IMG/VR virus record: IMGVR_UViG_644736362_000006
Direction: 5' to 3' (one strand)
DNA: 42,891 bases
Source: a virus
Lineage: Duplodnaviria; Heunggongvirae; Uroviricota; Caudoviricetes
The notes below the pieces were generated by a model. The model did not search any database. It was not told the DNA's origin and was given only the letters and a program-made list of their open reading frames with translations. Position numbers and translations under genes: made by a program. Shown here one piece after another: positions 1-28,311 of the stretch (position 1 is the first letter of the stretch; every line of letters starts with the position of its first letter).

Positions 1-591
1 TTATACGGCTTTTTTTACCTCCTGTGGTTCCTGTGAAGGTACTACAACACTTTCCTGTTCATGAATCCCATACTTTGACAAAATCTCTTTGCGTTTTTCT
101 TCAGGTAATGCATCTAGCATCATCAACGTCTGAATACTTTGCTGTGAAAATCCTATAAAGCTGTAAAGTTTCTGTTCATTAAATACAAGAGGCATTAACG
201 CCAACAACCCCCCTTTACTTAAAAGTTTCAGTGCCTTGCGTGCTTCATCTGGTTCCAGCTCTTCAATCATATTGATTAAGGTTGTGGTTAATTTGTTTAT
301 CAGTTCCGAAGAATCCTGTTTCTCATTGGCTTGAGCACCAGTATCCGGTGTGGATAACCCCAAGTGCGCAATAACTTGCTCTCGTTCTTTGGTGGGCATC
401 GACATCACATCGTATTCAACAGCTTTCCCCCCCTTGACACCTTCCTTTTTTTGCTTCGTCCAGCCTTGAACATTTGCTCGATAGTGAACACCAGCAACAG
501 ATCCAGGCATACCATCAGCAGCCATAATTTCTTGCGGCGAACACCAAATTGACTTTTCAGTATTATTCTTTTCTATAAAGTTACTTTTCAA
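1..591 (-). CDS. c: Phage Mu repressor c, complete 196 aa (stop codon at 1-3); codon 47 is Gln
   Basis: Minus-strand ORF translation MKSNFIEKNNTEKSIWCSPQEIMAADGMPG... recognised as Mu Repc; gene is divergent from ner as in the Mu left end. Confidence 0.9.
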   Translation of the reverse strand: MKSNFIEKNNTEKSIWCSPQEIMAADGMPGSVAGVHYRANVQGWTKQKKEGVKGGKAVEYDVMSMPTKEREQVIAHLGLSTPDTGAQANEKQDSSELINKLTTTLINMIEELEPDEARKALKLLSKGGLLALMPLVFNEQKLYSFIGFSQQSIQTLMMLDALPEEKRKEILSKYGIHEQESVVVPSQEPQEVKKAV

Positions 592-760
592 AATTTAAAC
601 TCCTTATTTATCAACGCGTTAATCAGTAATCAAAGGAATTTACCAAAAAGCAGCTTTACAAAAAGCTTTTCAGTAATTATCTTTTTAGTAAGCTAGCTAA
701 GTTTTTACACTTAGTTAAATTGCTAACTTTATAGATTACAAAACTTAGGAGGGTTTTTAA
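592..760. promoter_or_regulatory. Mu early operator/promoter region (O1-O3 with Pe and Pc, IHF site) between divergent c and ner
   Basis: AT-rich 170 bp divergent intergenic region between c and ner, with palindromic agctttacaaaaagctttt element; individual operator boundaries not resolved. Confidence 0.6.
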
Positions 761-988
761 ATGTGTTCCAACGAAAAGGCCCGTGATTGGCATCGTGCGG
801 ATGTGATTGCGGGACTTAAGAAAAGAAAGCTCTCTTTATCAGCTCTTTCCCGGCAGTTTGGTTATGCGCCAACTACATTAGCTAATGCGCTAGAACGACA
901 CTGGCCAAAGGGTGAGCAGATTATTGCTAACGCCTTAGAAACTAAACCGGAAGTAATCTGGCCTAGCCGATATCAAGCAGGTGAATAA
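761..988 (+). CDS. ner: Phage Mu Ner, early lytic regulator, 75 aa
   Basis: ORF translation [48 protein letters not shown]... recognised as Mu Ner. Confidence 0.92.
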
Positions 989-989
989 C

Positions 990-2798
990 ATGGAACTTTG
1001 GGTATCACCGAAAGAGTGTGCGAATCTTCCTGGTTTGCCGAAAACATCGGCTGGTGTGATTTATGTTGCTAAAAAGCAAGGATGGCAAAACCGCACTAGA
1101 GCAGGTGTCAAAGGTGGTAAAGCAATTGAATACAATGCGAACTCTTTACCTGTTGAAGCGAAAGCGGCGTTATTGCTGAGACAAGGAGAGATTGAAACAA
1201 GCCTGGGGTATTTTGAAATCGCCCGCCCCACGCTGGAAGCCCATGATTATGATCGTGAGGCACTGTGGAGCAAATGGGATAACGCCAGCGATTCCCAGCG
1301 CAGACTTGCTGAAAAATGGTTGCCTGCGGTTCAGGCTGCAGACGAAATGCTGAACCAGGGGATTTCAACGAAAACGGCTTTTGCGACCGTTGCAGGGCAT
1401 TACCAGGTCAGCGCATCCACTTTGCGGGACAAGTATTACCAGGTACAGAAGTTTGCGAAGCCTGACTGGGCGGCTGCACTTGTTGATGGACGTGGAGCAT
1501 CCCGTCGCAATGTTCACAAAAGTGAATTTGACGAGGATGCCTGGCAGTTTCTGATTGCAGATTATCTGCGACCGGAAAAACCCGCTTTCCGCAAATGTTA
1601 TGAGCGTCTGGAACTGGCAGCCCGCGAGCATGGCTGGAGTATTCCCTCCCGTGCCACGGCCTTTCGCCGGATTCAGCAACTGGACGAGGCAATGGTTGTT
1701 GCCTGTCGTGAAGGTGAACATGCACTGATGCATCTGATACCGGCACAGCAGCGAACTGTGGAACACCTGGACGCCATGCAGTGGATCAACGGCGACGGTT
1801 ATCTGCATAACGTCTTTGTACGCTGGTTTAACGGTGATGTGATCCGTCCGAAAACATGGTTCTGGCAGGATGTGAAAACCCGAAAAATTCTGGGCTGGCG
1901 CTGCGATGTGAGCGAGAACATTGATTCAATTCGCCTCTCGTTCATGGATGTTGTGACTCGCTACGGTATCCCGGAGGATTTTCACATCACCATTGATAAC
2001 ACCCGTGGTGCTGCGAATAAATGGCTGACGGGAGGCGCGCCCAATCGCTACCGCTTTAAGGTAAAAGAGGACGATCCAAAAGGACTGTTTTTACTGATGG
2101 GGGCGAAAATGCACTGGACAAGCGTTGTTGCCGGTAAAGGCTGGGGCCAGGCAAAACCTGTTGAACGTGCTTTCGGTGTTGGTGGGCTTGAGGAATACGT
2201 TGATAAGCATCCGGCACTGGCTGGCGCATATACGGGGCCAAATCCGTAGGCAAAACCTGATAACTATGGCGACCGCGCTGTTGATGCAGAGCTGTTTCTG
2301 AAAACCCTTGCCGAAGGTGTGGCGATGTTCAATGCCAGAACAGGCCGTGAAACAGAAATGTGCGGGGGCAAACTCTCGTTTGATGATGTTTTCGAGCGTG
2401 AATACGCCAGAACGATTGTGCGTAAGCCAACCGAAGAACAAAAACGGATGCTGTTACTGCCTGCCGAGGCGGTGAACGTTTCACGCAAAGGCGAGTTTAC
2501 GCTTAAAGTTGGCGGCTCCCTTAAAGGCGCGAAAAACGTTTATTACAACATGGCATTAATGAATGCCGGCGTGAAAAAAGTTGTGGTCAGGTTTGATCCG
2601 CAGCAGCTACACAGCACGGTTTATTGCTACACCCTGGACGGTCGGTTTATCTGTGAAGCGGAATGTCTGGCACCTGTTGCATTTAATGATGCTGCGGCAG
2701 GCCGTGAATATCGCCGCCGCCAGAAACAACTGAAATCTGCGACGAAAGCAGCCATTAAGGCGCAGAAACAAATGGACGCGCTGGAAGTTGCTGAACTG
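990..2798 (+). pseudogene. A: Phage Mu transposase A, 3'-truncated (A') and interrupted by an in-frame TAG at 2247-2249 (codon 420); lacks the C-terminal domain
   Basis: ATG at 990 gives [32 protein letters not shown]...; the 422-aa and 220-aa track ORFs are in the same frame separated only by TAG; Mu-like reading stops near 2796 where antisense lambda ea22 begins. Confidence 0.85.
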
Positions 2799-3209
2799 CT
2801 GCCGCAGAAACTCTTCCAGGTCACCAGTGCAGTGCTTGATAACAGGAGTCTTCCCAGGATGGCGAACAACAAGAAACTGGTTTCCGTCTTCACGGACTTC
2901 GTTGCTTTCCAGTTTAGCAATACGCTTACTCCCATCCGAGATAACACCTTCGTAATACTCACGCTGCTCGTTGAGTTTTGATTTTGCTGTTTCAAGCTCA
3001 ACACGCAGTTTCCCTACTGTTAGCGCAATATCCTCGTTCTCCTGGTCGCGGCGTTTGATGTATTGCTGGTTTCTTTCCCGTTCATCCAGCAGTTCCAGCA
3101 CAATCGATGGTGTTACCAATTCATGGAAAAGGTCTGCGTCAAATCCCCAGTCGTCATGCATTGCCTGCTCTGCCGCTTCACGCAGTGCCTGAGAGTTAAT
3201 TTCGCTCAC
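2797..3209 (-). CDS. ea22: Lambda Ea22, N-terminal about 138 codons only (3'-truncated at the Mu A' junction)
   Basis: Minus ORF begins [28 protein letters not shown]...; expected stop for a 182-aa Ea22 near 2661 is missing and the ORF runs into antisense Mu A. Confidence 0.7.
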
Positions 3210-3427
3210 TTCGAACCTCTCTGTTTACTGATAAGTTCCAGATCCTCCTGGCAACTTGCACAAGTCCGACAACCCTGAACGACCAGGCGTCTTCGTTCAT
3301 CTATCGGATCGCCACACTCACAACAATGAGTGGCAGATATAGCCTGGTGGTTCAGGCGGCGCATTTTTATTGCTGTGTTGCGCTGTAATTCTTCTATTTC
3401 TGATGCTGAATCAATGATGTCTGCCAT
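3206..3427 (-). CDS. Lambda Orf73, TraR/DksA-like C4 zinc-finger protein, 73 aa
   Basis: ORF with CxxC...CxxC spacing (CCECGDPIDERRRLVVQGCRTCASCQ); position immediately upstream of ea22. Confidence 0.75.
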   Translation of the reverse strand: MADIIDSASEIEELQRNTAIKMRRLNHQAISATHCCECGDPIDERRRLVVQGCRTCASCQEDLELISKQRGSK

Positions 3428-3652
3428 CTTTCATTAATCCCTGAACTGTTGGTTAATACGCTTGAGGGTGAATGCGAATAATAAAAAAGGAGCCTGTAGC
3501 TCCCTGATGATTTTGCTTTTCATGTTCATCGTTCCTTAAAGACGCCGTTTAACATGCCGATTGCCAGGCTTAAATGAGTCGGTGTGAATCCCATCAGCGT
3601 TACCGTTTCGCGGTGCTTCTTCAGTACGCTACGGCAAATGTCATCGACGTTT

Positions 3653-3838
3653 TTATCCGGAAACTGCTGTCTGGCTTTTTTTGATTTCAGAATTAGCCTG
3701 ACGGGCAATGCTGCGAAGGGCGTTTTCCTGCTGAGGTGTCATTGAACAAGTCCCATGTCGGCAAGCATAAGCACACAGAATATGAAGCCCGCTGCCAGAA
3801 AAATGCATTCCGTGGTTGTCATACCTGGTCTCTCTCAT
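3653..3838 (-). CDS. Lambda Orf61
   Basis: 61-aa ORF in expected position and orientation between ea22 and exo. Confidence 0.7.
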   Translation of the reverse strand: MRETRYDNHGMHFSGSGLHILCAYACRHGTCSMTPQQENALRSIARQANSEIKKSQTAVSG

Positions 3839-4010
3839 CTGCTTCTGCTTTCGCCACCATCATTTCCAGCTTTTGTGAAAGGGATGCGGCTAACGTATGA
3901 AATTCTTCGTCTGTTTCTACTGGTATTGGCACAAACCTGATTCCAATTTGAGCAAGGCTATGTGCCATCTCGATACTCGTTCTTAACTCAACAGAAGATG
4001 CTTTGTGCAT
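3819..4010 (-). CDS. Lambda Orf63
   Basis: 63-aa [26 protein letters not shown]... overlapping orf61 and orf60a as in lambda. Confidence 0.75.
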   Translation of the reverse strand: MHKASSVELRTSIEMAHSLAQIGIRFVPIPVETDEEFHTLAASLSQKLEMMVAKAEADERDQV

Positions 4011-4165
4011 ACAGCCCCTCGTTTATTATTTATCTCCTCAGCCAGCCGCTGTGCTTTCAGTGGATTTCGGATAACAGAAAGGCCGGGAAATACCCAGCCT
4101 CGCTTTGTAACGGAGTAGACGAAAGTGATTGCGCCTACCCGGATATTATCGTGAGGATGCGTCAT
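3983..4165 (-). CDS. Lambda Orf60a
   Basis: 60-aa ORF from the second Met of the track ORF, start overlapping the exo stop. Confidence 0.7.
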
Positions 4166-4842
4166 CGCCATTGCTCCCCAAATACAAAACCAATTTCAGC
4201 CAGTGCCTCGTCCATTTTTTCGATGAACTCCGGCACGATCTCGTCAAAACTCGCCATGTACTTTTCATCCCGCTCAATCACGACATAATGCAGGCCTTCA
4301 CGCTTCATACGCGGGTCATAGTTGGCAAAGTACCAGGCATTTTTTCGCGTCACCCACATGCTGTACTGCACCTGGGCCATGTAAGCTGACTTTATGGCCT
4401 CGAAACCACCGAGCCGGAACTTCATGAAATCCCGGGAGGTAAACGGGCATTTCAGTTCAAGGCCGTTGCCGTCACTGCATAAACCATCGGGAGAGCAGGC
4501 GGTACGCATACTTTCGTCGCGATAGATGATCGGGGATTCAGTAACATTCACGCCGGAAGTGAATTCAAACAGGGTTCTGGCGTCGTTCTCGTACTGTTTT
4601 CCCCAGGCCAGTGCTTTAGCGTTAACTTCCGGAGCCACACCGGTGCAAACCTCAGCAAGCAGGGTGTGGAAGTAGGACATTTTCATGTCAGGCCACTTCT
4701 TTCCGGAGCGGGGTTTTGCTATCACGTTGTGAACTTCTGAAGCGGTGATGACGCCGAGCCGTAATTTGTGCCACGCATCATCCCCCTGTTCGACAGCTCT
4801 CACATCGATCCCGGTACGCTGCAGGATAATGTCCGGTGTCAT
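4162..4842 (-). CDS. exo: Lambda exonuclease (Red alpha), 226 aa
   Basis: [68 protein letters not shown]... recognised as lambda Exo. Confidence 0.97.
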
Positions 4843-5624
4843 GCTGCCACCTTCTGCTCTGCGGCTTTCTGTTTCAGGAATCCAAGAGCTTTTACTGCTT
4901 CGGCCTGTGTCAGTTCTGACGATGCACGAATGTCGCGGCGAAATATCTGGGAACAGAGCGGCAATAAGTCGTCATCCCATGTTTTATCCAGGGCGATCAG
5001 CAGAGTGTTAATCTCCTGCATGGTTTCATCGTTAACCGGAGTGATGTCGCGTTCCGGCTGACGTTCTGCAGTGTATGCAGTATTTTCGACAATGCGCTCG
5101 GCTTCATCCTTGTCATAGATACCAGCAAATCCGAAGGCCAGACGGGCACACTGAATCATGGCTTTATGACGTAACATCCGTTTGGGATGCGACTGCCACG
5201 GCCCCGTGATTTCTCTGCCTTCGCGAGTTTTGAATGGTTCGCGGCGGCATTCATCCATCCATTCGGTAACGCAGATCGGATGATTACGGTCCTTGCGGTA
5301 AATCCGGCATGTACAGGATTCATTGTCCTGCTCAAAGTCCATGCCATCAAACTGCTGGTTTTCATTGATGATGCGGGACCAGCCATCAACGCCCACCACC
5401 GGAACGATGCCATTCTGCTTATCAGGAAAGGCGTAAATTTCTTTCGTCCACGGATTAAGGCCGTACTGGTTGGCAACGATCAGTAATGCGATGAACTGCG
5501 CATCGCTGGCATCACCTTTAAATGCCGTCTGGCGAAGAGTGGTGATCAGTTCCTGTGGGTCGACAGAATCCATGCCGACACGTTCAGCCAGCTTCCCAGC
5601 CAGCGTTGCGAGTGCAGTACTCAT
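4839..5624 (-). CDS. bet: Lambda Bet (Red beta) single-strand annealing protein, 261 aa
   Basis: [69 protein letters not shown]... recognised as lambda Bet. Confidence 0.97.
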
Positions 5625-5629
5625 TCGTT

Positions 5630-6046
5630 TTATACCTCTGAATCAATATCAACCTGGTGGTGAGCAATGGTTTCAACCATGTACCGGATGTGTTCTGCCA
5701 TGCGCTCCTGAAACTCAACATCGTCATCAAACGCACGGGTAATGGATTTTTTGCTGGCCCCGTGGCGTTGCAAATGATCGATGCATAGCGATTCAAACAG
5801 GTGCTGGGGCAGGCCTTTTTCCATGTCGTCTGCCAGTTCTGCCTCTTTCTCTTCACGGGCGAGCTGCTGGTAGTGACGCGCCCAGCTCTGAGCCTCAAGA
5901 CGATCCTGAATGTAATAAGCGTTCATGGCTGAACTCCTGAAATAGCTGTGAAAATATCGCCCGCGAAATGCCGGGCTGATTAGGAAAACAGGAAAGGGGG
6001 TTAGTGAATGCTTTTGCTTGATCTCAGTTTCAGTATTAATATCCAT
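5630..6046 (-). CDS. gam: Lambda Gam, RecBCD inhibitor, 138 aa
   Basis: [90 protein letters not shown]... recognised as lambda Gam. Confidence 0.97.
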
Positions 6047-6144
6047 TTTTTATAAGCGTCGACGGCTTCACGAAACATCTTTTCATCGCCAATAAAAGTG
6101 GCGATAGTGAATTTAGTCTGGATAGCCATAAGTGTTTGATCCAT
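6001..6144 (-). CDS. kil: Lambda Kil, 47 aa
   Basis: Internal Met of track ORF 6001..6270 gives [47 protein letters not shown]. Confidence 0.85.
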
Positions 6145-6277
6145 TCTTTGGGACTCCTGGCTGATTAAGTATGTCGATAAGGCGTTTCCATCCGTCACGT
6201 AATTTACGGGTGATTCGTTCAAGTAAAGATTCGGAAGGGCAGCCAGCAACAGGCCACCCTGCAATGGCATATTGCAT
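6113..6277 (-). CDS. cIII: Lambda CIII, 54 aa (below the ORF-track length cutoff)
   Basis: Reverse complement from 6277 reads ATGCAATATGCCATTGCAGGGTGGCCT... = [54 protein letters not shown], stop at 6113-6115. Confidence 0.9.
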   Translation of the reverse strand: MQYAIAGWPVAGCPSESLLERITRKLRDGWKRLIDILNQPGVPKNGSNTYGYPD

Positions 6278-6334
6278 GGTGTGCTCCTTATTTATACATA
6301 ACGAAAAACGCCTCGACCTGCAGGGGGGGGGGGG

Positions 6335-6560
6335 CGCTGAGGTCTGCCTCGTGAAGAAGGTGTTGCTGACTCATACCAGGCCTGAATCGCCCCATCATCC
6401 AGCCAGAAAGTGAGGGAGCCACGGTTGATGAGAGCTTTGTTGTAGGTGGACCAGTTGGTGATTTTGAACTTTTGCTTTGCCACGGAACGGTCTGCGTTGT
6501 CGGGAAGATGCGTGATCTGATCCTTCAACTCAGCAAAAGTTCGATTTATTCAACAAAGCC
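6335..6560 (-). mobile_element. IS903 end fragment: terminal inverted repeat (6543-6560) plus first ~65 codons of the transposase, truncated at the G tail
   Basis: Reverse complement of 6543-6560 is ggctttgttgaataaatc; minus ORF MKDQITHLPDNADRSVAKQKFKITNWSTYNKALINRGSLTFWLDDGAIQAWYE then runs into poly-G. Confidence 0.8.
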
Positions 6561-6620
6561 GCCGTCCCGTCAAGTCAGCGTAATGCTCTGCCAGTGTTAC
6601 AACCAATTAACCAATTCTGA

Positions 6621-7436
6621 TTAGAAAAACTCATCGAGCATCAAATGAAACTGCAATTTATTCATATCAGGATTATCAATACCATATTTTTGAAAAAGCC
6701 GTTTCTGTAATGAAGGAGAAAACTCACCGAGGCAGTTCCATAGGATGGCAAGATCCTGGTATCGGTCTGCGATTCCGACTCGTCCAACATCAATACAACC
6801 TATTAATTTCCCCTCGTCAAAAATAAGGTTATCAAGTGAGAAATCACCATGAGTGACGACTGAATCCGGTGAGAATGGCAAAAGCTTATGCATTTCTTTC
6901 CAGACTTGTTCAACAGGCCAGCCATTACGCTCGTCATCAAAATCACTCGCATCAACCAAACCGTTATTCATTCGTGATTGCGCCTGAGCGAGACGAAATA
7001 CGCGATCGCTGTTAAAAGGACAATTACAAACAGGAATCGAATGCAACCGGCGCAGGAACACTGCCAGCGCATCAACAATATTTTCACCTGAATCAGGATA
7101 TTCTTCTAATACCTGGAATGCTGTTTTCCCGGGGATCGCAGTGGTGAGTAACCATGCATCATCAGGAGTACGGATAAAATGCTTGATGGTCGGAAGAGGC
7201 ATAAATTCCGTCAGCCAGTTTAGTCTGACCATCTCATCTGTAACATCATTGGCAACGCTACCTTTGCCATGTTTCAGAAACAACTCTGGCGCATCGGGCT
7301 TCCCATACAATCGATAGATTGTCGCACCTGATTGCCCGACATTATCGCGAGCCCATTTATACCCATATAAATCAGCATCCATGTTGGAATTTAATCGCGG
7401 CCTCGAGCAAGACGTTTCCCGTTGAATATGGCTCAT
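6621..7436 (-). CDS. aph(3')-Ia: Aminoglycoside 3'-phosphotransferase APH(3')-Ia (kanamycin/neomycin resistance, Tn903 type), 271 aa
   Basis: ORF MSHIQRETSCSRPRLNSNMDADLYGYKWARDNVGQSGATIYRLYGKPDAPELFLKHGKGSVANDVTDEMVRLNWLTEFMPLPTIKHF... recognised as APH(3')-Ia. Confidence 0.97.
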   Translation of the reverse strand: MSHIQRETSCSRPRLNSNMDADLYGYKWARDNVGQSGATIYRLYGKPDAPELFLKHGKGSVANDVTDEMVRLNWLTEFMPLPTIKHFIRTPDDAWLLTTAIPGKTAFQVLEEYPDSGENIVDALAVFLRRLHSIPVCNCPFNSDRVFRLAQAQSRMNNGLVDASDFDDERNGWPVEQVWKEMHKLLPFSPDSVVTHGDFSLDNLIFDEGKLIGCIDVGRVGIADRYQDLAILWNCLGEFSPSLQKRLFQKYGIDNPDMNKLQFHLMLDEFF

Positions 7437-7599
7437 AACACCCCTTGTATTACTGTTTATGTAAGCAGACAGTTTTATTGTTCATGATGATATATTTTTA
7501 TCTTGTGCAATGTAACATCAGAGATTTTGAGACACAACGTGGCTTTCCCCCCCCCCTGCAGGTCGAGTGAAGCGTTATTGGTATGCGGTAAAACCGCAC

Positions 7600-7968
7600 T
7601 CAGGCGGCCTTGATAGTCATATCATCTGAATCAAATATTCCTGATGTATCGATATCGGTAATTCTTATTCCTTCGCTACCATCCATTGGAGGCCATCCTT
7701 CCTGACCATTTCCATCATTCCAGTCGAACTCACACACAACACCATATGCATTTAAGTCGCTTGAAATTGCTATAAGCAGAGCATGTTGCGCCAGCATGAT
7801 TAATACAGCATTTAATACAGAGCCGTGTTTATTGAGTCGGTATTCAGAGTCTGACCAGAAATTATTAATCTGGTGAAGTTTTTCCTCTGTCATTACGTCA
7901 TGGTCGATTTCAATTTCTATTGATGCTTTCCAGTCGTAATCAATGATGTATTTTTTGATGTTTGACAT
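7600..7968 (-). CDS. ea10: Lambda Ea10, 122 aa
   Basis: ORF MSNIKKYIIDYDWKASIEIEIDHDVMTEEKLHQINNFWSDSEYRLNKHGSVLNAVLIMLAQ... recognised as lambda Ea10. Confidence 0.9.
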   Translation of the reverse strand: MSNIKKYIIDYDWKASIEIEIDHDVMTEEKLHQINNFWSDSEYRLNKHGSVLNAVLIMLAQHALLIAISSDLNAYGVVCEFDWNDGNGQEGWPPMDGSEGIRITDIDTSGIFDSDDMTIKAA

Positions 7969-8150
7969 CTGTTCATATCCTCACAGATAAAAAATCGCCC
8001 TCACACTGGAGGGCAAAGAAGATTTCCAATAATCAGAACAAGTCGGCTCCTGTTTAGTTACGAGCGACATTGCTCCGTGTATTCACTCGTTGGAATGAAT
8101 ACACAGTGCAGTGTTTATTCTGTTATTTATGCCAAAAATAAAGGCCACTA

Positions 8151-8351
8151 TCAGGCAGCTTTGTTGTTCTGTTTACCAAGTTCTCTGGCAATCATTGCCG
8201 TCGTTCGTATTGCCCATTTATCGACATATTTCCCATCTTCCATTACAGGAAACATTTCTTCAGGCTTAACCATGCATTCCGATTGCAGCTTGCATCCATT
8301 GCATCGCTTGAATTGTCCACACCATTGATTTTTATCAATAGTCGTAGTCAT
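8151..8351 (-). CDS. ral: Lambda Ral, restriction alleviation, 66 aa
   Basis: ORF MTTTIDKNQWCGQFKRCNGCKLQSECMVKPEEMFPVMEDGKYVDKWAIRTTAMIARELGKQNNKAA. Confidence 0.92.
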   Translation of the reverse strand: MTTTIDKNQWCGQFKRCNGCKLQSECMVKPEEMFPVMEDGKYVDKWAIRTTAMIARELGKQNNKAA

Positions 8352-8545
8352 ACGGATAGTCCTGGTATTGTTCCATCACATCCTGAGGATGCTCTTCGAA
8401 CTCTTCAAATTCTTCTTCCATATATCACCTTAAATAGTGGATTGCGGTAGTAAAGATTGTGCCTGTCTTTTAACCACATCAGGCTCGGTGGTTCTCGTGT
8501 ACCCCTACAGCGAGAAATCGGATAAACTATTACAACCCCTACAGT

Positions 8546-9100
8546 TTGATGAGTATAGAAATGGATCCACTCGTTATTCTCGGACGAGTGTTCAGTAATG
8601 AACCTCTGGAGAGAACCATGTATATGATCGTTATCTGGGTTGGACTTCTGCTTTTAAGCCCAGATAACTGGCCTGAATATGTTAATGAGAGAATCGGTAT
8701 TCCTCATGTGTGGCATGTTTTCGTCTTTGCTCTTGCATTTTCGCTAGCAATTAATGTGCATCGATTATCAGCTATTGCCAGCGCCAGATATAAGCGATTT
8801 AAGCTAAGAAAACGCATTAAGATGCAAAACGATAAAGTGCGATCAGTAATTCAAAACCTTACAGAAGAGCAATCTATGGTTTTGTGCGCAGCCCTTAATG
8901 AAGGCAGGAAGTATGTGGTTACATCAAAACAATTCCCATACATTAGTGAGTTGATTGAGCTTGGTGTGTTGAACAAAACTTTTTCCCGATGGAATGGGAA
9001 GCATATATTATTCCCTATTGAGGATATTTACTGGACTGAATTAGTTGCCAGCTATGATCCATATAATATTGAGATAAAGCCAAGGCCAATATCTAAGTAA
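8546..9100 (+). CDS. sieB: Lambda SieB, superinfection exclusion protein
   Basis: ORF MMSIEMDPLVILGRVFSNEPLERTMYMIVIWVGLLLLSPDNWPEYVNERIGIPHVWHVFVFALAF..., on the strand opposite N as in lambda. Confidence 0.9.
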   Translation: MMSIEMDPLVILGRVFSNEPLERTMYMIVIWVGLLLLSPDNWPEYVNERIGIPHVWHVFVFALAFSLAINVHRLSAIASARYKRFKLRKRIKMQNDKVRSVIQNLTEEQSMVLCAALNEGRKYVVTSKQFPYISELIELGVLNKTFSRWNGKHILFPIEDIYWTELVASYDPYNIEIKPRPISK

Positions 9101-9424
9101 CTAGATAAGAGGAATCGATTTTCCCTTAATTTTCTGGCGTCCACTGCATGTTATGCCGCGTTCGCCAGGCTTGCTGTACCATGTGCGCTGATTCTTGCGC
9201 TCAATACGTTGCAGGTTGCTTTCAATCTGTTTGTGGTATTCAGCCAGCACTGTAAGGTCTATCGGATTTAGTGCGCTTTCTACTCGTGATTTCGGTTTGC
9301 GATTCAGCGAGAGAATAGGGCGGTTAACTGGTTTTGCGCTTACCCCAACCAACAGGGGATTTGCTGCTTTCCATTGAGCCTGTTTCTCTGCGCGACGTTC
9401 GCGGCGGCGTGTTTGTGCATCCAT
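9101..9424 (-). CDS. N: Lambda N antiterminator, 107 aa
   Basis: Internal Met of track ORF gives MDAQTRRRERRAEKQAQWKAANPLLVGVSAKPVNRPILSLNRKPKSRVESALNPIDLTVLAEYHKQIESNLQRIERKNQRTWYSKPGERGITCSGRQKIKGKSIPLI. Confidence 0.95.
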   Translation of the reverse strand: MDAQTRRRERRAEKQAQWKAANPLLVGVSAKPVNRPILSLNRKPKSRVESALNPIDLTVLAEYHKQIESNLQRIERKNQRTWYSKPGERGITCSGRQKIKGKSIPLI

Positions 9425-9574
9425 CTGGATTCTCCTGTCAGTTAGCTTTGGTGGTGTGTGGCAGTTGTAGTCCTGAACGAAAACCCCCCGCGATTGGCAC
9501 ATTGGCAGCTAATCCGGAATCGCACTTACGGCCAATGCTTCGTTTCGTATCACACACCCCAAAGCCTTCTGCTT

Positions 9575-9614
9575 TGAATGCTGCCCTTCTTCAGGGCTTA
9601 ATTTTTAAGAGCGT
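9575..9614 (-). promoter_or_regulatory. nutL (boxA and boxB) N-utilisation site
   Basis: Minus strand contains boxB hairpin gccctgaagaagggc (9578-9594) and boxA cgctcttaa (9606-9614). Confidence 0.85.
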
Positions 9615-9645
9615 CACCTTCATGGTGGTCAGTGCGTCCTGCTGA

Positions 9646-9715
9646 TGTGCTCAGTATCACCGCCAGTGGTATTTATGTCAACACCGCCAGAGATAATTTA
9701 TCACCGCAGATGGTT
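9646..9715 (-). promoter_or_regulatory. pL promoter with operators oL1 (9655-9671), oL2 (9679-9695), oL3 (9699-9715)
   Basis: 17-bp operator sequences tatcaccgccagtggta, caacaccgccagagata, tatcaccgcagatggtt; -35 TTGACA and -10 GATACT on minus strand. Confidence 0.9.
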
Positions 9716-9888
9716 ATCTGTATGTTTTTTATATGAATTTATTTTTTGCAGGGGGGCATTGTTTGGTAGGTGAGAGATCTGAATTGCTATGTTTAGTGAG
9801 TTGTATCTATTTATTTTTCAATAAATACAATTGGTTATGTGTTTTGGGGGCGATCGTGAGGCAAAGAAAACCCGGCGCTGAGGCCGGG

Positions 9889-10323
9889 TTATTCTTGTTC
9901 TCTGGTCAAATTATATAGTTGGAAAACAAGGATGCATATATGAATGAACGATGCAGAGGCAATGCCGATGGCGATAGTGGGTATCATGTAGCCGCTTATG
10001 CTGGAAAGAAGCAATAACCCGCAGAAAAACAAAGCTCCAAGCTCAACAAAACTAAGGGCATAGACAATAACTACCGATGTCATATACCCATACTCTCTAA
10101 TCTTGGCCAGTCGGCGCGTTCTGCTTCCGATTAGAAACGTCAAGGCAGCAATCAGGATTGCAATCATGGTTCCTGCATATGATGACAATGTCGCCCCAAG
10201 ACCATCTCTATGAGCTGAAAAAGAAACACCAGGAATGTAGTGGCGGAAAAGGAGATAGCAAATGCTTACGATAACGTAAGGAATTATTACTATGTAAACA
10301 CCAGGCATGATTCTGTTCCGCAT
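9889..10323 (-). CDS. rexB: Lambda RexB, 144 aa membrane protein
   Basis: ORF MRNRIMPGVYIVIIPYVIVSICYLLFRHYIPGVSFSAHRDGLGATLSSYAGTMIAILIAALTF... Confidence 0.95.
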   Translation of the reverse strand: MRNRIMPGVYIVIIPYVIVSICYLLFRHYIPGVSFSAHRDGLGATLSSYAGTMIAILIAALTFLIGSRTRRLAKIREYGYMTSVVIVYALSFVELGALFFCGLLLLSSISGYMIPTIAIGIASASFIHICILVFQLYNLTREQE

Positions 10324-10338
10324 AATTACTCCTGATAA

Positions 10339-11178
10339 TTAATCCTTAACTTTGCCCACCTGCCTTTTAAAACATTCCAGTATATCACTTTTCATTCTTG
10401 CGTAGCAATATGCCATCTCTTCAGCTATCTCAGCATTGGTGACCTTGTTCAGAGGCGCTGAGAGATGGCCTTTTTCTGATAGATAATGTTCTGTTAAAAT
10501 ATCTCCGGCCTCATCTTTTGCCCGCAGGCTAATGTCTGAAAATTGAGGTGACGGGTTAAAAATAATATCCTTGGCAACCTTTTTTATATCCCTTTTAAAT
10601 TTTGGCTTAATGACTATATCCAATGAGTCAAAAAGCTCCCCTTCAATATCTGTTGCCCCTAAGACCTTTAATATATCGCCAAATACAGGTAGCTTGGCTT
10701 CTACCTTCACCGTTGTTCGGCCGATGAAATGCATATGCATAACATCGTCTTTGGTGGTTCCCCTCATCAGTGGCTCTATCTGAACGCGCTCTCCACTGCT
10801 TAATGACATTCCTTTCCCGATTAAAAAATCTGTCAGATCGGATGTGGTCGGCCCGAAAACAGTTCTGGCAAAACCAATGGTGTCGCCTTCAACAAACAAA
10901 AAAGATGGGAATCCCAATGATTCGTCATCTGCGAGGCTGTTCTTAATATCTTCAACTGAAGCTTTAGAGCGATTTATCTTCTGAACCAGACTCTTGTCAT
11001 TTGTTTTGGTAAAGAGAAAAGTTTTTCCATCGATTTTATGAATATACAAATAATTGGAGCCAACCTGCAGGTGATGATTATCAGCCAGCAGAGAATTAAG
11101 GAAAACAGACAGGTTTATTGAGCGCTTATCTTTCCCTTTATTTTTGCTGCGGTAAGTCGCATAAAAACCATTCTTCAT
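10339..11178 (-). CDS. rexA: Lambda RexA, 279 aa
   Basis: ORF MKNGFYATYRSKNKGKDKRSINLSVFLNSLLADNHHLQVGSNYLYIHKIDGKTFLFTKTNDKSLVQKINRSKASVEDIKN... Confidence 0.95.
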   Translation of the reverse strand: MKNGFYATYRSKNKGKDKRSINLSVFLNSLLADNHHLQVGSNYLYIHKIDGKTFLFTKTNDKSLVQKINRSKASVEDIKNSLADDESLGFPSFLFVEGDTIGFARTVFGPTTSDLTDFLIGKGMSLSSGERVQIEPLMRGTTKDDVMHMHFIGRTTVKVEAKLPVFGDILKVLGATDIEGELFDSLDIVIKPKFKRDIKKVAKDIIFNPSPQFSDISLRAKDEAGDILTEHYLSEKGHLSAPLNKVTNAEIAEEMAYCYARMKSDILECFKRQVGKVKD

Positions 11179-11290
11179 AATTCAATCCATTTACTATGTT
11201 ATGTTCTGAGGGGAGTGAAAATTCCCCTAATTCGATGAAGATTCTTGCTCAATTGTTATCAGCTATGCGCCGACCAGAACACCTTGCCGA

Positions 11291-12007
<717 letters not shown>

Positions 12008-12014
12008 TTAAATC

Positions 12015-12090
12015 TATCACCGCAAGGGATAAATATCTAACACCGTGCGTGTTGACTATTTTACCTCTGGCGGTGATAATGGTTGCATGT
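12015..12090. promoter_or_regulatory. oR3-oR2-oR1 operators with divergent pRM and pR promoters
   Basis: tatcaccgcaagggata (12015-12031), taacaccgtgcgtgttg (12038-12054), tacctctggcggtgata (12062-12078); pR -35 ttgact and -10 gataat. Confidence 0.92.
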
Positions 12091-12095
12091 ACTAA

Positions 12096-12305
<210 letters not shown>

Positions 12306-12312
12306 ATAACCC

Positions 12313-12344
12313 CGCTCTTACACATTCCAGCCCTGAAAAAGGGC
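12313..12344 (+). promoter_or_regulatory. nutR (boxA cgctctta, boxB gccctgaaaaagggc)
   Basis: boxA at 12313-12320 and boxB hairpin at 12330-12344 immediately downstream of cro. Confidence 0.88.
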
Positions 12345-12404
12345 ATCAAATTAAACCACACCTATGGTGTATGCATTTATTTGCATACATTCAATCAATT
12401 GTTA

Positions 12405-12445
12405 TCTAAGGAAATACTTACATATGGTTCGTGCAAACAAACGCA
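12405..12445 (-). promoter_or_regulatory. pRE promoter with CII binding site (TTGC-N6-TTGC) overlapping the cII start
   Basis: Minus strand ttgcgtttgtttgc at 12432-12445, inside the first cII codons. Confidence 0.7.
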
Positions 12446-12717
12446 ACGAGGCTCTACGAATCGAGAGTGCGTTGCTTAACAAAATCGCAATGCTTGGAAC
12501 TGAGAAGACAGCGGAAGCTGTGGGCGTTGATAAGTCGCAGATCAGCAGGTGGAAGAGGGACTGGATTCCAAAGTTCTCAATGCTGCTTGCTGTTCTTGAA
12601 TGGGGGGTCGTTGACGACGACATGGCTCGATTGGCGCGACAAGTTGCTGCGATTCTCACCAATAAAAAACGCCCGGCGGCAACCGAGCGTTCTGAACAAA
12701 TCCAGATGGAGTTCTGA
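12424..12717 (+). CDS. cII: Lambda CII transcriptional activator, 97 aa
   Basis: Internal Met of track ORF gives MVRANKRNEALRIESALLNKIAMLGTEKTAEAVGVDKSQISRWKRDWIPKFSMLLAVLEWGVVDDDMARLARQVAAILTNKKRPAATERSEQIQMEF. Confidence 0.95.
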   Translation: MVRANKRNEALRIESALLNKIAMLGTEKTAEAVGVDKSQISRWKRDWIPKFSMLLAVLEWGVVDDDMARLARQVAAILTNKKRPAATERSEQIQMEF

Positions 12718-12739
12718 GGTCATTACTGGATCTATCAAC
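12663..12739 (-). ncRNA. oop: oop antisense RNA (about 77 nt) ending at the to terminator
   Basis: Minus-strand GC hairpin followed by T run (reverse complement of aataaaaaacgcccggcggcaacc at 12661-12684), located between cII 3' end and O start; ends placed from remembered lambda coordinates. Confidence 0.6.
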
Positions 12740-12749
12740 AGGAGTCATT

Positions 12750-13649
12750 ATGACAAATACAGCAAAAATACTCAACTTCGGCAGAGGTAACTTTGCCGGA
12801 CAGGAGCGTAATGTGGCAGATCTCGATGATGGTTACGCCAGACTATCAAATATGCTGCTTGAGGCTTATTCGGGCGCAGATCTGACCAAGCGACAGTTTA
12901 AAGTGCTGCTTGCCATTCTGCGTAAAACCTATGGGTGGAATAAACCAATGGACAGAATCACCGATTCTCAACTTAGCGAGATTACAAAGTTACCTGTCAA
13001 ACGGTGCAATGAAGCCAAGTTAGAACTCGTCAGAATGAATATTATCAAGCAGCAAGGCGGCATGTTTGGACCAAATAAAAACATCTCAGAATGGTGCATC
13101 CCTCAAAACGAGGGAAAATCCCCTAAAACGAGGGATAAAACATCCCTCAAATTGGGGGATTGCTATCCCTCAAAACAGGGGGACACAAAAGACACTATTA
13201 CAAAAGAAAAAAGAAAAGATTATTCGTCAGAGAATTCTGGCGAATCCTCTGACCAGCCAGAAAACGACCTTTCTGTGGTGAAACCGGATGCTGCAATTCA
13301 GAGCGGCAGCAAGTGGGGGACAGCAGAAGACCTGACCGCCGCAGAGTGGATGTTTGACATGGTGAAGACTATCGCACCATCAGCCAGAAAACCGAATTTT
13401 GCTGGGTGGGCTAACGATATCCGCCTGATGCGTGAACGTGACGGACGTAACCACCGCGACATGTGTGTGCTGTTCCGCTGGGCATGCCAGGACAACTTCT
13501 GGTCCGGTAACGTGCTGAGCCCGGCCAAACTCCGCGATAAGTGGACCCAACTCGAAATCAACCGTAACAAGCAACAGGCAGGCGTGACAGCCAGCAAACC
13601 AAAACTCGACCTGACAAACACAGACTGGATTTACGGGGTGGATCTATGA
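12750..13649 (+). CDS. O: Lambda O replication initiator, 299 aa
   Basis: ORF MTNTAKILNFGRGNFAGQERNVADLDDGYARLSNMLLEAYSGADLTKRQFKVLLAILRKTYGWNKPMDRITDSQLSEITKLPVKRCNEAK... Confidence 0.97.
   Translation: MTNTAKILNFGRGNFAGQERNVADLDDGYARLSNMLLEAYSGADLTKRQFKVLLAILRKTYGWNKPMDRITDSQLSEITKLPVKRCNEAKLELVRMNIIKQQGGMFGPNKNISEWCIPQNEGKSPKTRDKTSLKLGDCYPSKQGDTKDTITKEKRKDYSSENSGESSDQPENDLSVVKPDAAIQSGSKWGTAEDLTAAEWMFDMVKTIAPSARKPNFAGWANDIRLMRERDGRNHRDMCVLFRWACQDNFWSGNVLSPAKLRDKWTQLEINRNKQQAGVTASKPKLDLTNTDWIYGVDL
13098..13230. other. ori lambda: four ~19-bp O-binding iterons followed by an AT-rich unwinding region
   Basis: Repeats catccctcaaaacgaggga / aatcccctaaaacgagggat / catccctcaaattgggggat / tatccctcaaaacaggggga, then A-rich tract aaaagaaaaaagaaaag. 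Confidence 0.9.
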
Positions 13650-14347
13650 AAAACATCGCCGCACAGATGGTTAACTTTGACCGTGAGCAGATGCGTCGGA
13701 TCGCCAACAACATGCCGGAACAGTACGACGAAAAGCCGCAGGTACAGCAGGTAGCGCAGATCATCAACGGTGTGTTCAGCCAGTTACTGGCAACTTTCCC
13801 GGCGAGCCTGGCTAACCGTGACCAGAACGAAGTGAACGAAATCCGTCGCCAGTGGGTTCTGGCTTTTCGGGAAAACGGGATCACCACGATGGAACAGGTT
13901 AACGCAGGAATGCGCGTAGCCCGTCGGCAGAATCGACCATTTCTGCCATCACCCGGGCAGTTTGTTGCATGGTGCCGGGAAGAAGCATCCGTTACCGCCG
14001 GACTGCCAAACGTCAGCGAGCTGGTTGATATGGTTTACGAGTATTGCCGGAAGCGAGGCCTGTATCCGGATGCGGAGTCTTATCCGTGGAAATCAAACGC
14101 GCACTACTGGCTGGTTACCAACCTGTATCAGAACATGCGGGCCAATGCGCTTACTGATGCGGAATTACGCCGTAAGGCCGCAGATGAGCTTGTCCATATG
14201 ACTGCGAGAATTAACCGTGGTGAGGCGATCCCTGAACCAGTAAAACAACTTCCTGTCATGGGCGGTAGACCTCTAAATCGTGCACAGGCTCTGGCGAAGA
14301 TCGCAGAAATCAAAGCTAAGTTCGGACTGAAAGGAGCAAGTGTATGA
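13646..14347 (+). CDS. P: Lambda P helicase loader, 233 aa
   Basis: ORF MKNIAAQMVNFDREQMRRIANNMPEQYDEKPQVQQVAQIINGVFSQLLATFPASLANRDQNEVNEIRRQWVLAFRENGITTMEQVN... Confidence 0.97.
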   Translation: MKNIAAQMVNFDREQMRRIANNMPEQYDEKPQVQQVAQIINGVFSQLLATFPASLANRDQNEVNEIRRQWVLAFRENGITTMEQVNAGMRVARRQNRPFLPSPGQFVAWCREEASVTAGLPNVSELVDMVYEYCRKRGLYPDAESYPWKSNAHYWLVTNLYQNMRANALTDAELRRKAADELVHMTARINRGEAIPEPVKQLPVMGGRPLNRAQALAKIAEIKAKFGLKGASV

Positions 14348-14634
14348 CGGGCAAAGAGGCAATTATTCATTACCTGGGGACGCATAATAGCTTCTGTGCG
14401 CCGGACGTTGCCGCGCTAACAGGCGCAACAGTAACCAGCATAAATCAGGCCGCGGCTAAAATGGCACGGGCAGGTCTTCTGGTTATCGAAGGTAAGGTCT
14501 GGCGAACGGTGTATTACCGGTTTGCTACCAGGGAAGAACGGGAAGGAAAGATGAGCACGAACCTGGTTTTTAAGGAGTGTCGCCAGAGTGCCGCGATGAA
14601 ACGGGTATTGGCGGTATATGGAGTTAAAAGATGA
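14344..14634 (+). CDS. ren: Lambda Ren, 96 aa
   Basis: ORF MTGKEAIIHYLGTHNSFCAPDVAALTGATVTSINQAAAKMARAGLLVIEGKVWRTVYYRFATREEREGK... Confidence 0.92.
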   Translation: MTGKEAIIHYLGTHNSFCAPDVAALTGATVTSINQAAAKMARAGLLVIEGKVWRTVYYRFATREEREGKMSTNLVFKECRQSAAMKRVLAVYGVKR

Positions 14635-14707
14635 CCATCTACATTACTGAGCTAATAACAGGCCTGCTGGTAATCGCAGGCCTTTTTATTTGGGGGAGAG
14701 GGAAGTC

Positions 14708-15148
14708 ATGAAAAAACTAACCTTTGAAATTCGATCTCCAGCACATCAGCAAAACGCTATTCACGCAGTACAGCAAATCCTTCCAGACCCAACCAAACCA
14801 ATCGTAGTAACCATTCAGGAACGCAACCGCAGCTTAGACCAAAACAGGAAGCTATGGGCCTGCTTAGGTGACGTCTCTCGTCAGGTTGAATGGCATGGTC
14901 GCTGGCTGGATGCAGAAAGCTGGAAGTGTGTGTTTACCGCAGCATTAAAGCAGCAGGATGTTGTTCCTAACCTTGCCGGGAATGGCTTTGTGGTAATAGG
15001 CCAGTCAACCAGCAGGATGCGTGTAGGCGAATTTGCGGAGCTATTAGAGCTTATACAGGCATTCGGTACAGAGCGTGGCGTTAAGTGGTCAGACGAAGCG
15101 AGACTGGCTCTGGAGTGGAAAGCGAGATGGGGAGACAGGGCTGCATGA
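14708..15148 (+). CDS. ninB: Lambda NinB (Orf recombination mediator), 146 aa
   Basis: Internal Met gives MKKLTFEIRSPAHQQNAIHAVQQILPDPTKPIVVTIQERNRSLDQNRKLWACLGDV... Confidence 0.92.
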   Translation: MKKLTFEIRSPAHQQNAIHAVQQILPDPTKPIVVTIQERNRSLDQNRKLWACLGDVSRQVEWHGRWLDAESWKCVFTAALKQQDVVPNLAGNGFVVIGQSTSRMRVGEFAELLELIQAFGTERGVKWSDEARLALEWKARWGDRAA

Positions 15149-16017
15149 TAAATGTCGTTAGTTTCTCCGGTGGCAGGACGTCAGCATATTTGCTCTGGCT
15201 AATGGAGCAAAAGCGACGGGCAGGTAAAGACGTGCATTACGTTTTCATGGATACAGGTTGTGAACATCCAATGACATATCGGTTTGTCAGGGAAGTTGTG
15301 AAGTTCTGGGATATACCGCTCACCGTATTGCAGGTTGATATCAACCCGGAGCTTGGACAGCCAAATGGTTATACGGTATGGGAACCAAAGGATATTCAGA
15401 CGCGAATGCCTGTTCTGAAGCCATTTATCGATATGGTAAAGAAATATGGCACTCCATACGTCGGCGGCGCGTTCTGCACTGACAGATTAAAACTCGTTCC
15501 CTTCACCAAATACTGTGATGACCATTTCGGGCGAGGGAATTACACCACGTGGATTGGCATCAGAGCTGATGAACCGAAGCGGCTAAAGCCAAAGCCTGGA
15601 ATCAGATATCTTGCTGAACTGTCAGACTTTGAGAAGGAAGATATCCTCGCATGGTGGAAGCAACAACCATTCGATTTGCAAATACCGGAACATCTCGGTA
15701 ACTGCATATTCTGCATTAAAAAATCAACGCAAAAAATCGGACTTGCCTGCAAAGATGAGGAGGGATTGCAGCGTGTTTTTAATGAGGTCATCACGGGATC
15801 CCATGTGCGTGACGGACATCGGGAAACGCCAAAGGAGATTATGTACCGAGGAAGAATGTCGCTGGACGGTATCGCGAAAATGTATTCAGAAAATGATTAT
15901 CAAGCCCTGTATCAGGACATGGTACGAGCTAAAAGATTCGATACCGGCTCTTGTTCTGAGTCATGCGAAATATTTGGAGGGCAGCTTGATTTCGACTTCG
16001 GGAGGGAAGCTGCATGA
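15145..16017 (+). CDS. ninC: Lambda NinC, 290 aa
   Basis: Internal Met gives [65 protein letters not shown]... Confidence 0.92.
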
Positions 16018-16187
16018 TGCGATGTTATCGGTGCGGTGAATGCAAAGAAGATAACCGCTTCCGACCAAATCAACCTTACTGGAATCGATGGTGTCTCCGG
16101 TGTGAAAGAACACCAACAGGGGTGTTACCACTACCGCAGGAAAAGGAGGACGTGTGGCGAGACAGCGACGAAGTATCACCGACATAA
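16014..16187 (+). CDS. ninD: Lambda NinD, 57 aa cysteine-rich protein (below ORF-track cutoff)
   Basis: Manual translation from ATG at 16014: [57 protein letters not shown], stop at 16185-16187. Confidence 0.8.
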
Positions 16188-16336
16188 TCTGCGAAAACTG
16201 CAAATACCTTCCAACGAAACGCACCAGAAATAAACCCAAGCCAATCCCAAAAGAATCTGACGTAAAAACCTTCAACTACACGGCTCACCTGTGGGATATC
16301 CGGTGGCTAAGACGTCGTGCGAGGAAAACAAGGTGA
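16154..16336 (+). CDS. ninE: Lambda NinE, 60 aa
   Basis: [63 protein letters not shown]. Confidence 0.85.
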
Positions 16337-16503
16337 TTGACCAAAATCGAAGTTACGAACAAGAAAGCGTCGAGCGAGCTTTAACGTGCGCTAACTGCGG
16401 TCAGAAGCTGCATGTGCTGGAAGTTCACGTGTGTGAGCACTGCTGCGCAGAACTGATGAGCGATCCGAATAGCTCGATGCACGAGGAAGAAGATGATGGC
16501 TAA
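16333..16503 (+). CDS. ninF: Lambda NinF; start uncertain (GTG at 16333 overlapping the ninE stop, or upstream ATG at 16291)
   Basis: Cysteine-rich ORF ...[55 protein letters not shown]. Confidence 0.7.
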
Positions 16504-17107
16504 ACCAGCGCGAAGACGATGTAAAAACGATGAATGCCGGGAATGGTTTCACCCTGCATTCGCTAATCAGTGGTGGTGCTCTCCAGAGTGTGGAACCAAG
16601 ATAGCACTCGAACGACGAAGTAAAGAACGCGAAAAAGCGGAAAAAGCAGCAGAGAAGAAACGACGACGAGAGGAGCAGAAACAGAAAGATAAACTTAAGA
16701 TTCGAAAACTCGCCTTAAAGCCCCGCAGTTACTGGATTAAACAAGCCCAACAAGCCGTAAACGCCTTCATCAGAGAAAGAGACCGCGACTTACCATGTAT
16801 CTCGTGCGGAACGCTCACGTCTGCTCAGTGGGATGCCGGACATTACCGGACAACTGCTGCGGCACCTCAACTCCGATTTAATGAACGCAATATTCACAAG
16901 CAATGCGTGGTGTGCAACCAGCACAAAAGCGGAAATCTCGTTCCGTATCGCGTCGAACTGATTAGCCGCATCGGGCAGGAAGCAGTAGACGAAATCGAAT
17001 CAAACCATAACCGCCATCGCTGGACTATCGAAGAGTGCAAGGCGATCAAGGCAGAGTACCAACAGAAACTCAAAGACCTGCGAAATAGCAGAAGTGAGGC
17101 CGCATGA
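16493..17107 (+). CDS. ninG: Lambda NinG (Rap), 204 aa
   Basis: [70 protein letters not shown]... Confidence 0.92.
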
Positions 17108-17310
17108 CGTTCTCAGTAAAAACCATTCCAGACATGCTCGTTGAAGCATACGGAAATCAGACAGAAGTAGCACGCAGACTGAAATGTAGTCGCGGTACGG
17201 TCAGAAAATACGTTGATGATAAAGACGGGAAAATGCACGCCATCGTCAACGACGTTCTCATGGTTCATCGCGGATGGAGTGAAAGAGATGCGCTATTACG
17301 AAAAAATTGA
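17104..17310 (+). CDS. ninH: Lambda NinH, 68 aa
   Basis: [71 protein letters not shown]. Confidence 0.9.
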
Positions 17311-17953
17311 TGGCAGCAAATACCGAAATATTTGGGTAGTTGGCGATCTGCACGGATGCTACACGAACCTGATGAACAAACTGGATACGATTGGATTCGA
17401 CAACAAAAAAGACCTGCTTATCTCGGTGGGCGATTTGGTTGATCGTGGTGCAGAGAACGTTGAATGCCTGGAATTAATCACATTCCCCTGGTTCAGAGCT
17501 GTACGTGGAAACCATGAGCAAATGATGATTGATGGCTTATCAGAGCGTGGAAACGTTAATCACTGGCTGCTTAATGGCGGTGGCTGGTTCTTTAATCTCG
17601 ATTACGACAAAGAAATTCTGGCTAAAGCTCTTGCCCATAAAGCAGATGAACTTCCGTTAATCATCGAACTGGTGAGCAAAGATAAAAAATATGTTATCTG
17701 CCACGCCGATTATCCCTTTGACGAATACGAGTTTGGAAAGCCAGTTGATCATCAGCAGGTAATCTGGAACCGCGAACGAATCAGCAACTCACAAAACGGG
17801 ATCGTGAAAGAAATCAAAGGCGCGGACACGTTCATCTTTGGTCATACGCCAGCAGTGAAACCACTCAAGTTTGCCAACCAAATGTATATCGATACCGGCG
17901 CAGTGTTCTGCGGAAACCTAACATTGATTCAGGTACAGGGAGAAGGCGCATGA
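17288..17953 (+). CDS. ninI: Lambda NinI Ser/Thr protein phosphatase, 221 aa
   Basis: Internal Met gives [63 protein letters not shown]... with GDLHG and GNHE phosphoesterase motifs. Confidence 0.92.
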
Positions 17954-18573
17954 GACTCGAAAGCGTAGCTAAATTTCATTCGCCAAAAAGCCCGATGATG
18001 AGCGACTCACCACGGGCCACGGCTTCTGACTCTCTTTCCGGTACTGATGTGATGGCTGCTATGGGGATGGCGCAATCACAAGCCGGATTCGGTATGGCTG
18101 CATTCTGCGGTAAGCACGAACTCAGCCAGAACGACAAACAAAAGGCTATCAACTATCTGATGCAATTTGCACACAAGGTATCGGGGAAATACCGTGGTGT
18201 GGCAAAGCTTGAAGGAAATACTAAGGCAAAGGTACTGCAAGTGCTCGCAACATTCGCTTATGCGGATTATTGCCGTAGTGCCGCGACGCCGGGGGCAAGA
18301 TGCAGAGATTGCCATGGTACAGGCCGTGCGGTTGATATTGCCAAAACAGAGCTGTGGGGGAGAGTTGTCGAGAAAGAGTGCGGAAGATGCAAAGGCGTCG
18401 GCTATTCAAGGATGCCAGCAAGCGCAGCATATCGCGCTGTGACGATGCTAATCCCAAACCTTACCCAACCCACCTGGTCACGCACTGTTAAGCCGCTGTA
18501 TGACGCTCTGGTGGTGCAATGCCACAAAGAAGAGTCAATCGCAGACAACATTTTGAATGCGGTCACACGTTAG
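17950..18573 (+). CDS. Q: Lambda Q late antiterminator, 207 aa
   Basis: [89 protein letters not shown]... Confidence 0.97.
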
Positions 18574-18615
18574 CAGCATGATTGCCACGGATGGCAACAT
18601 ATTAACGGCATGATA

Positions 18616-18644
18616 TTGACTTATTGAATAAAATTGGGTAAATT
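18616..18644 (+). promoter_or_regulatory. pR' late promoter (-35 ttgact, 17-bp spacer, -10 taaatt) with overlapping qut site
   Basis: ttgact at 18616-18621 and taaatt at 18639-18644, directly downstream of Q. Confidence 0.8.
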
Positions 18645-18651
18645 TGACTCA

Positions 18652-20491: not shown

Positions 20492-20522
20492 AGTTGCCCA
20501 TATCGATGGGCAACTCATGCAA

Positions 20523-22750: not shown

Positions 22751-22755
22751 GAACA

Positions 22756-23301: not shown

Positions 23302-26982
<3,681 letters not shown>

Positions 26983-27002
<20 letters not shown>

Positions 27003-28302: not shown

Positions 28303-28311
28303 GGGATGTTT

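Follow-up and report, generated by a model that had tools for sequence, protein, structure and literature searches.

Segments of the window

The window (the whole stretch of 42,891 nucleotides that we analysed, IMG/VR virus record IMGVR_UViG_644736362_000006) carries a segment of phage Mu at its left end, a lambda backbone interrupted by a kanamycin cassette, and a part of lacA at its right end (Table 1). When the window was compared by BLAST with the Mu reference (NC_000929), positions 1–2808 aligned with Mu 339–3146 with one mismatch, and the comparison with the lambda reference (NC_001416) aligned positions 2799–6316 with lambda 29985–33502, also with one mismatch. Lambda 19999–29984 is absent, which removes the b region together with attP, int, xis and ea8.5 as well as the 3′-terminal part of ea22. 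Without attP, int and xis, such a lambda has only the Mu ends or homology as routes of integration. The deletion would also free the room that allows lac, Mu and kan to fit within the lambda packaging limit.

Table 1. Features of the window, with positions counted from its first letter.
Feature	Position	Strand	Description	Evidence
Mu repressor gene c	1–591	-	196-residue ORF, identical to Mu 339–929	
Mu ner	761–988	+	identical to Mu 1099–1326	
Mu A′	990–2807	+	codons 1–606 of 663, interrupted by an amber codon at 2247–2249	alignment, Pfam
Amber codon in A	2247–2249	+	TAG at MuA codon 420 (wild type CAG), C to T at 2247	
Antisense Mu A, after Ea22 residue 137	2607–2798	-	63 nonsense codons and stop (2607–2609)	
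Mu/lambda joint	2799–2808		10 bases, CTGCCGCAGA, common to Mu 3137–3146 and lambda 29985–29994	base-by-base comparison
Lambda ea22′	2799–3209	-	codons 1–137 of 182	Pfam Ead_Ea22, alignment
Antisense ea22, in frame after MuA Q606	2808–2981	+	57 nonsense codons and stop (2979–2981)	
Lambda backbone	2799–42565	+	prophage-permuted, lambda 29985–48502 then 1–19998	BLAST
Kanamycin cassette	6317–7562	-	APH(3′)-Ia of Tn903, in the lambda XhoI site (33498)	
Lambda right arm beyond the cassette	7563–22566		lambda 33499–48502	BLAST
Lambda left arm	22567–42565		lambda 1–19998	BLAST
Lambda 19998/lacA′ joint and 5′ part of lacA	42559–42891	-	7 bp shared, CGTAACG, at 42559–42565	

The Mu segment holds the early genes c and ner and a 3′-truncated A, and no Mu B gene is present in the phage. 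Residue 47 of the repressor (window 451–453) is a glutamine, which we take to be cts62 (R47Q), a thermosensitive allele; the same base stands in the Mu reference record.

The kanamycin cassette is an insert of 1246 bp at lambda 33498–33502, between cIII (which ends at 33463) and ea10 (which starts at 33536), and its 271-residue APH(3′)-Ia product is 100% identical to that of the Tn903 gene. At its ends lie hybrid XhoI/SalI sites (CTCGAC and GTCGAG), PstI sites and G/C homopolymer tails, which are presumably the hallmarks of a pUC4K cassette. A kanamycin cassette with hybrid XhoI/SalI ends implies that the element was engineered, and the boundary of the cassette is an unambiguous in vitro joint.

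At the right end, the final 326 bases (42566–42891) are the 5′ part of lacA in antisense orientation and are 100% identical to lacA of K-12. The seven bases shared by lambda and lacA′ belong to a 25-bp patch in which the identity is about 76%. We assume that this boundary was inherited from phages of the λplac5 type, and the joint probably dates from the original λplac phage.

Some departures from reference lambda were seen in the backbone. Most of the right-arm mismatches (29 of the 31) fall within window 21049–22550 (lambda 46985–48486), the last 1.5 kb before cos, where the divergence from lambda is about 1.7% and the identity to the recombinant phages PhiR29_1 and PhiR29_2 is 99.4%; the pattern suggests that this segment may have been gained from another lambdoid phage or prophage during the history of the strain. 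Isolated differences occur at window 3830 (lambda 31016, T to C, orf61/orf63), window 8998 (lambda 34934, A to G, sieB) and window 19682 (lambda 45618, T to C, R). The lambda cI and S genes agree with the reference record.

The ten-base joint and the genes that it truncates

A megablast search of window 2300–3300 against a phage collection split the query cleanly between the two parents: query 1–509 matched Mu 2638–3146 (gene A) and query 500–1001 matched lambda 29985–30486 (ea22), both at 100%. Base-by-base comparison gave the same picture, with Mu identity up to window 2808, lambda identity from 2799 on, and no filler or unassigned bases between the two alignments. The crossover point lies somewhere inside the 10-bp microhomology at 2799–2808. 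In the list of open reading frames, a rightward frame (2319–2981) and a leftward frame (3209–2607) overlap near 2800.

The initial annotation, made from the letters and the reading frames, had placed a junction of Mu A and lambda ea22 at 2780–2810 and had proposed alignment to both genes as the check. The alignments confirm the junction and narrow the breakpoint to the shared bases. The two readings had been judged to meet around 2796, which is near the joint but lies 3 bases to the left of the ambiguous interval. As to the two arrangements named there as contrary to such a junction, Mu A is not intact through 2981, its wild-type identity ending at Q606, and no third sequence is interposed between Mu and lambda, whose alignments overlap by 10 bases. 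The proposed pair of convergent genes, each truncated at its 3′ end, is likewise borne out by both nucleotide and protein alignments.

By protein comparison, MuA is wild type through Q606 of its 663 residues, apart from the amber at codon 420, and Pfam recognises HTH_Tnp_Mu_1, HTH_Tnp_Mu_2, DDE_2 and Mu-transpos_C in the truncated product. Beyond Q606 the frame continues into a nonsense tail that reads KLFQVT...LTLLVEF*. The complete fusion frame (990–2981) has 663 codons, 606 from Mu and 57 of nonsense, which by coincidence is the length of wild-type MuA, so that a protein gel would be blind to the truncation if the amber were read through. A homologue search of a protein database with the 220-residue C-terminal frame of A′ gave no match covering the fusion tail. 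MuA had been described in the initial annotation as protein-like to about codon 603 and as lacking its C-terminal domain, with antisense nonsense beyond the joint; the truncation and the antisense tail (57 codons of ea22) are as described, and only the last wild-type residue shifts, to Q606.

The position of this truncation can be read against what is known of the structure of the transposase. Subdomain IIIα ends at about residue 604; subdomain IIIβ (the last ~60 residues) is the part through which MuA interacts with MuB and ClpX, and some assays do not require it (PMC3362531). The crystallised core construct (residues 77–605; PDB ID: 4FCY) stops at P605, one residue before the joint. Judged by these boundaries, the joint would cut away IIIβ almost exactly and keep the DNA-binding and catalytic domains together with IIIα. 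The transposase would thus be left without its module for interaction with MuB and ClpX and with a 57-residue nonsense tail in addition, and the likely functional cost of the loss of IIIβ is that of the MuB and ClpX contacts.

Across the 2808 bases, the sequence departs from reference Mu only in the amber at codon 420. Because this codon lies upstream of the joint, the fusion tail is untranslated in a suppressor-free host.

On the other strand, the Ea22 frame opens at 3209 and keeps the wild-type sequence for the first 137 of its 182 residues; the last 45 codons and the stop have been deleted. The suggestion that Ea22 lacks its own stop and runs on as antisense of Mu A holds, the run being 63 codons long; the truncation had been put at about codon 138, which is right as to the place, with 137 as the exact last wild-type residue. 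A scan for promoter and terminator signals around the joint found none above those in shuffled sequences. Transcription from the Mu early promoter would enter ea22 in antisense, and transcription from lambda pL would enter A in antisense and c in sense. The Mu A sequence also contains a 9-nt perfect inverted repeat at 2692–2700 and 2799–2807 (CTGCGGCAG / CTGCCGCAG), the right arm of which falls on the microhomology; chance alone would give about 0.3 repeats of this kind in 400 nt, and it is probably meaningless.

Relation to the λplacMu phages

An exact scan for a 36-nt sequence spanning the joint found a single IMG/VR contig (L003), which matches the window at 100% over 9355 bp. Its positions 1–586 extend the window leftward with Mu 1–338 and 248 bp of malG, and the prophage boundary in this contig is an intact Mu left end inside malG, not attB. 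The element thus reaches 338 bp to the left of the window, to the Mu terminus; on the right, the window ends inside lacA and the element would go on from there into lacY, lacZ and a Mu S end. Both edges of the window are gene-call boundaries: it starts on the left at the stop codon of Mu c and ends on the right at an internal ATG of lacA, 6 nt inside the MG1655 start, and it looks like a provirus call that was trimmed to genes.

The E. coli strain BW2952 is a kanamycin resistant MC4100 malG::λplacMu55 (PMC3708739), and its genome (NC_012759) is described with a λplacMu insertion (PMC4986956). The malG insertion of λplacMu55 in BW2952 is bounded by the Mu left end, as is the one seen here, and we found no difference between them at the level of genotype and gene arrangement. 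More generally, λplacMu55 and the element in the window have in common a lambda immλ backbone, a Mu c end that carries c, ner and A, and presumably an amber in A; they further share the kan gene between cIII and ea10 and a lac segment attached beyond lom to the lambda left arm. According to Bremer et al. (1984, 1985), λplacMu reportedly carries the Mu c end (cIts62, ner, A), with the Mu S end beside lac (a promoterless lacZ–lacY) at the other end of the prophage, and the kan derivatives of 1985 are said to have the kan gene between cIII and ssb (ea10). Descriptions of these phages reportedly speak of “the A gene”, which in the sequence here is truncated at codon 606; it is a minor historical point that in this fusion tool, which has been widely used, the “A gene” ends at the IIIα/IIIβ boundary.

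The λplacMu55 type is presumably the one that is described with the Aam1093 allele and that depends on the helper λpMu507. Aam1093 is an integration-defective amber (PMC3325207), and the amber at codon 420 fits this allele. An amber at this position would inactivate A altogether and so stabilise the insertions; in a host without a suppressor the prophage would be dead for transposition, and a helper would have to supply both A and B. From the match of genotypes, we infer that the phage is λplacMu55.

Very probably, then, the joint represents the seam on the right of the Mu/lac substitution in λplacMu, made by breaking and joining at a microhomology and carried by a prophage that arose through Mu transposition into malG of E. 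coli K-12. The joint is already known by way of λplacMu and is not a natural hybrid. The initial annotation had called it novel, which is correct with respect to the wild-type phages but not with respect to this known engineered family.

Formation of the joint and related systems

An overlap of this length is rarely met by chance. For a random joint of Mu and lambda, the probability of an overlap of at least 10 nt is about 8e-6 when calculated analytically and 6e-6 in a simulation of 2 million joints between Mu 1–5500 and lambda 27000–33000. The same two regions share 28 10-mers, with 31 expected, and as this is the chance rate the 10-mer in question is not conserved or special; the crossover took one of the short identities on offer. 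No six-base restriction site falls within the shared 10-mer, whose sites are limited to GCNGC, CCGC and degenerate ones, and the identity continues past each of these. Neither breakpoint has a transposase or site-specific recombinase site: on the Mu side the end of the phage is 3.1 kb away, and on the lambda side the att core is 2.25 kb away. Both boundaries of the substitution bear the microhomology signature expected of illegitimate recombination, of 10 bp at Mu/lambda and 7 bp at lambda/lacA′.

Because a 10-base overlap has a chance of only ~7e-6 and no six-base restriction site is present, we favour an origin in vivo, and the seam was most likely made by illegitimate recombination dependent on short homology. 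Through the references given in PMC2621351, this process is known as a RecA-independent one that produces spontaneous deletions and λbio transducing phages. A break-join of Mu A with lambda ea22 at a chance identity of 10 bp would be an instance of it, and the event would have tied Mu attL, c, ner and A′ to the lambda early-left arm while removing lambda 19999–29984. The most likely setting would be aberrant excision from a lysogen in which a lambda–lac prophage lay beside the Mu c end, with selection for a plaque-forming phage of packageable size.

As an alternative, a restriction fragment bearing the Mu c end could have been ligated in vitro with an arm of lambda, but we consider this improbable. 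The same element does have an undoubted in vitro joint, that of the kan cassette with its hybrid XhoI/SalI ends, and sites for enzymes of the Fnu4HI type (GCNGC) as well as CCGC lie inside the shared 10-mer. Against this, a six-base cloning site is not present at the joint, and ligation at a site of 4–5 bp predicts identity over that site only, so that the extra bases (at least 5) would be a coincidence of ~1e-3, the 10-bp overlap as a whole having a P of ~7e-6. Partial digests with frequent cutters would also be impractical for a lambda recombinant of 49 kb.

It is very hard to credit that the joint comes from a natural Mu–lambda recombinant phage or prophage mosaic, even though joints of temperate phages at short homologies are common and both parents infect E. 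coli. The parental segments are nearly those of the laboratory references (one mismatch in each), they are accompanied by a kan cassette in the style of pUC4K and by lacA of K-12, and the amber in A fits a laboratory allele, presumably Aam1093. Moreover, a search of 5,426 complete E. coli genomes, a set without NC_012759, gave no record with the joint, and exact-pattern scans for the 36-nt sequence found it neither in 185,579 species-representative genomes nor in the JGI metagenome contigs. Such rarity is expected, because the construct is confined to a few laboratory strains.

A rearrangement by the Mu transposase, or by lambda Int at a secondary att site, has next to no likelihood. Both enzymes are able to rearrange DNA and would have been at hand in the ancestral lysogens, but the transposase would have left an endpoint at a Mu end, whereas the breakpoint is internal (Mu 3137–3146) and Mu base 1 is intact in L003; Int, for its part, uses the attP core (lambda 27724–27738), which is deleted here and lies 2.25 kb from the breakpoint.

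The joint was also recovered in a contig of 1734 bp (L005, from the independent run DRR002064) that was the one match of an exact-protein look-up of Logan with the Ea22′ fusion frame; it spans the joint and is 99.9% identical to window 4165–2434. Since both L003 and this contig carry the same joint, it is not an assembly artefact. A chimera of Mu and lambda reads is accordingly most implausible: ten shared bases could in principle mislead an assembler working with short k-mers, but a 10-bp repeat is far below the k-mer sizes of assemblers, the joint is found in three separate assemblies (the window, L003 and L005), and the arrangement as a whole fits a published construct.

If the joint is indeed the seam of λplacMu, its consequences would extend to other phages of the series. 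We lean towards the view that the A+ phages λplacMu1, 9, 50 and 53 share it, and that they transpose an element of ~49 kb in vivo with a MuA that lacks IIIβ, the MuB contact and the C-terminal ClpX tag and that bears the 57-residue tail. If true, this would be an unrecognised demonstration in vivo that IIIβ is dispensable for conservative Mu integration, and it would account for the low intrinsic frequency of the A+ λplacMu phages and for their stimulation by an A+B+ helper. As regards annotation, an engineered construct stands inside public genome and viral-contig collections and needs to be flagged, lest the joint be taken for phage mosaicism or for a natural variant of the transposase.

A similar picture emerges for the λbio and λgal specialised transducing phages (studied by Ikeda and co-workers, as cited in PMC2621351), which arise by aberrant excision of a prophage and in which lambda is joined to adjacent non-lambda DNA; the joints likewise have a microhomology of ~10 bp, no filler and a position off the att core, and they are of the RecA-independent type. 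The λbio substitution removes int–xis and the adjacent early-left genes, as the one described here does. The difference lies in the neighbouring DNA, which is bio or gal in those phages and the end of a Mu prophage in this case. The truncated transposase also has a counterpart among the MuA proteins studied in vitro (residues 77–605, PDB ID: 4FCY, and the IIIβ deletions), which end within one residue of the IIIα/IIIβ boundary, as here. Those proteins differ from the MuA of the window in that the cut here is accidental, is followed by 57 unrelated residues, and is preceded by an amber at codon 420.
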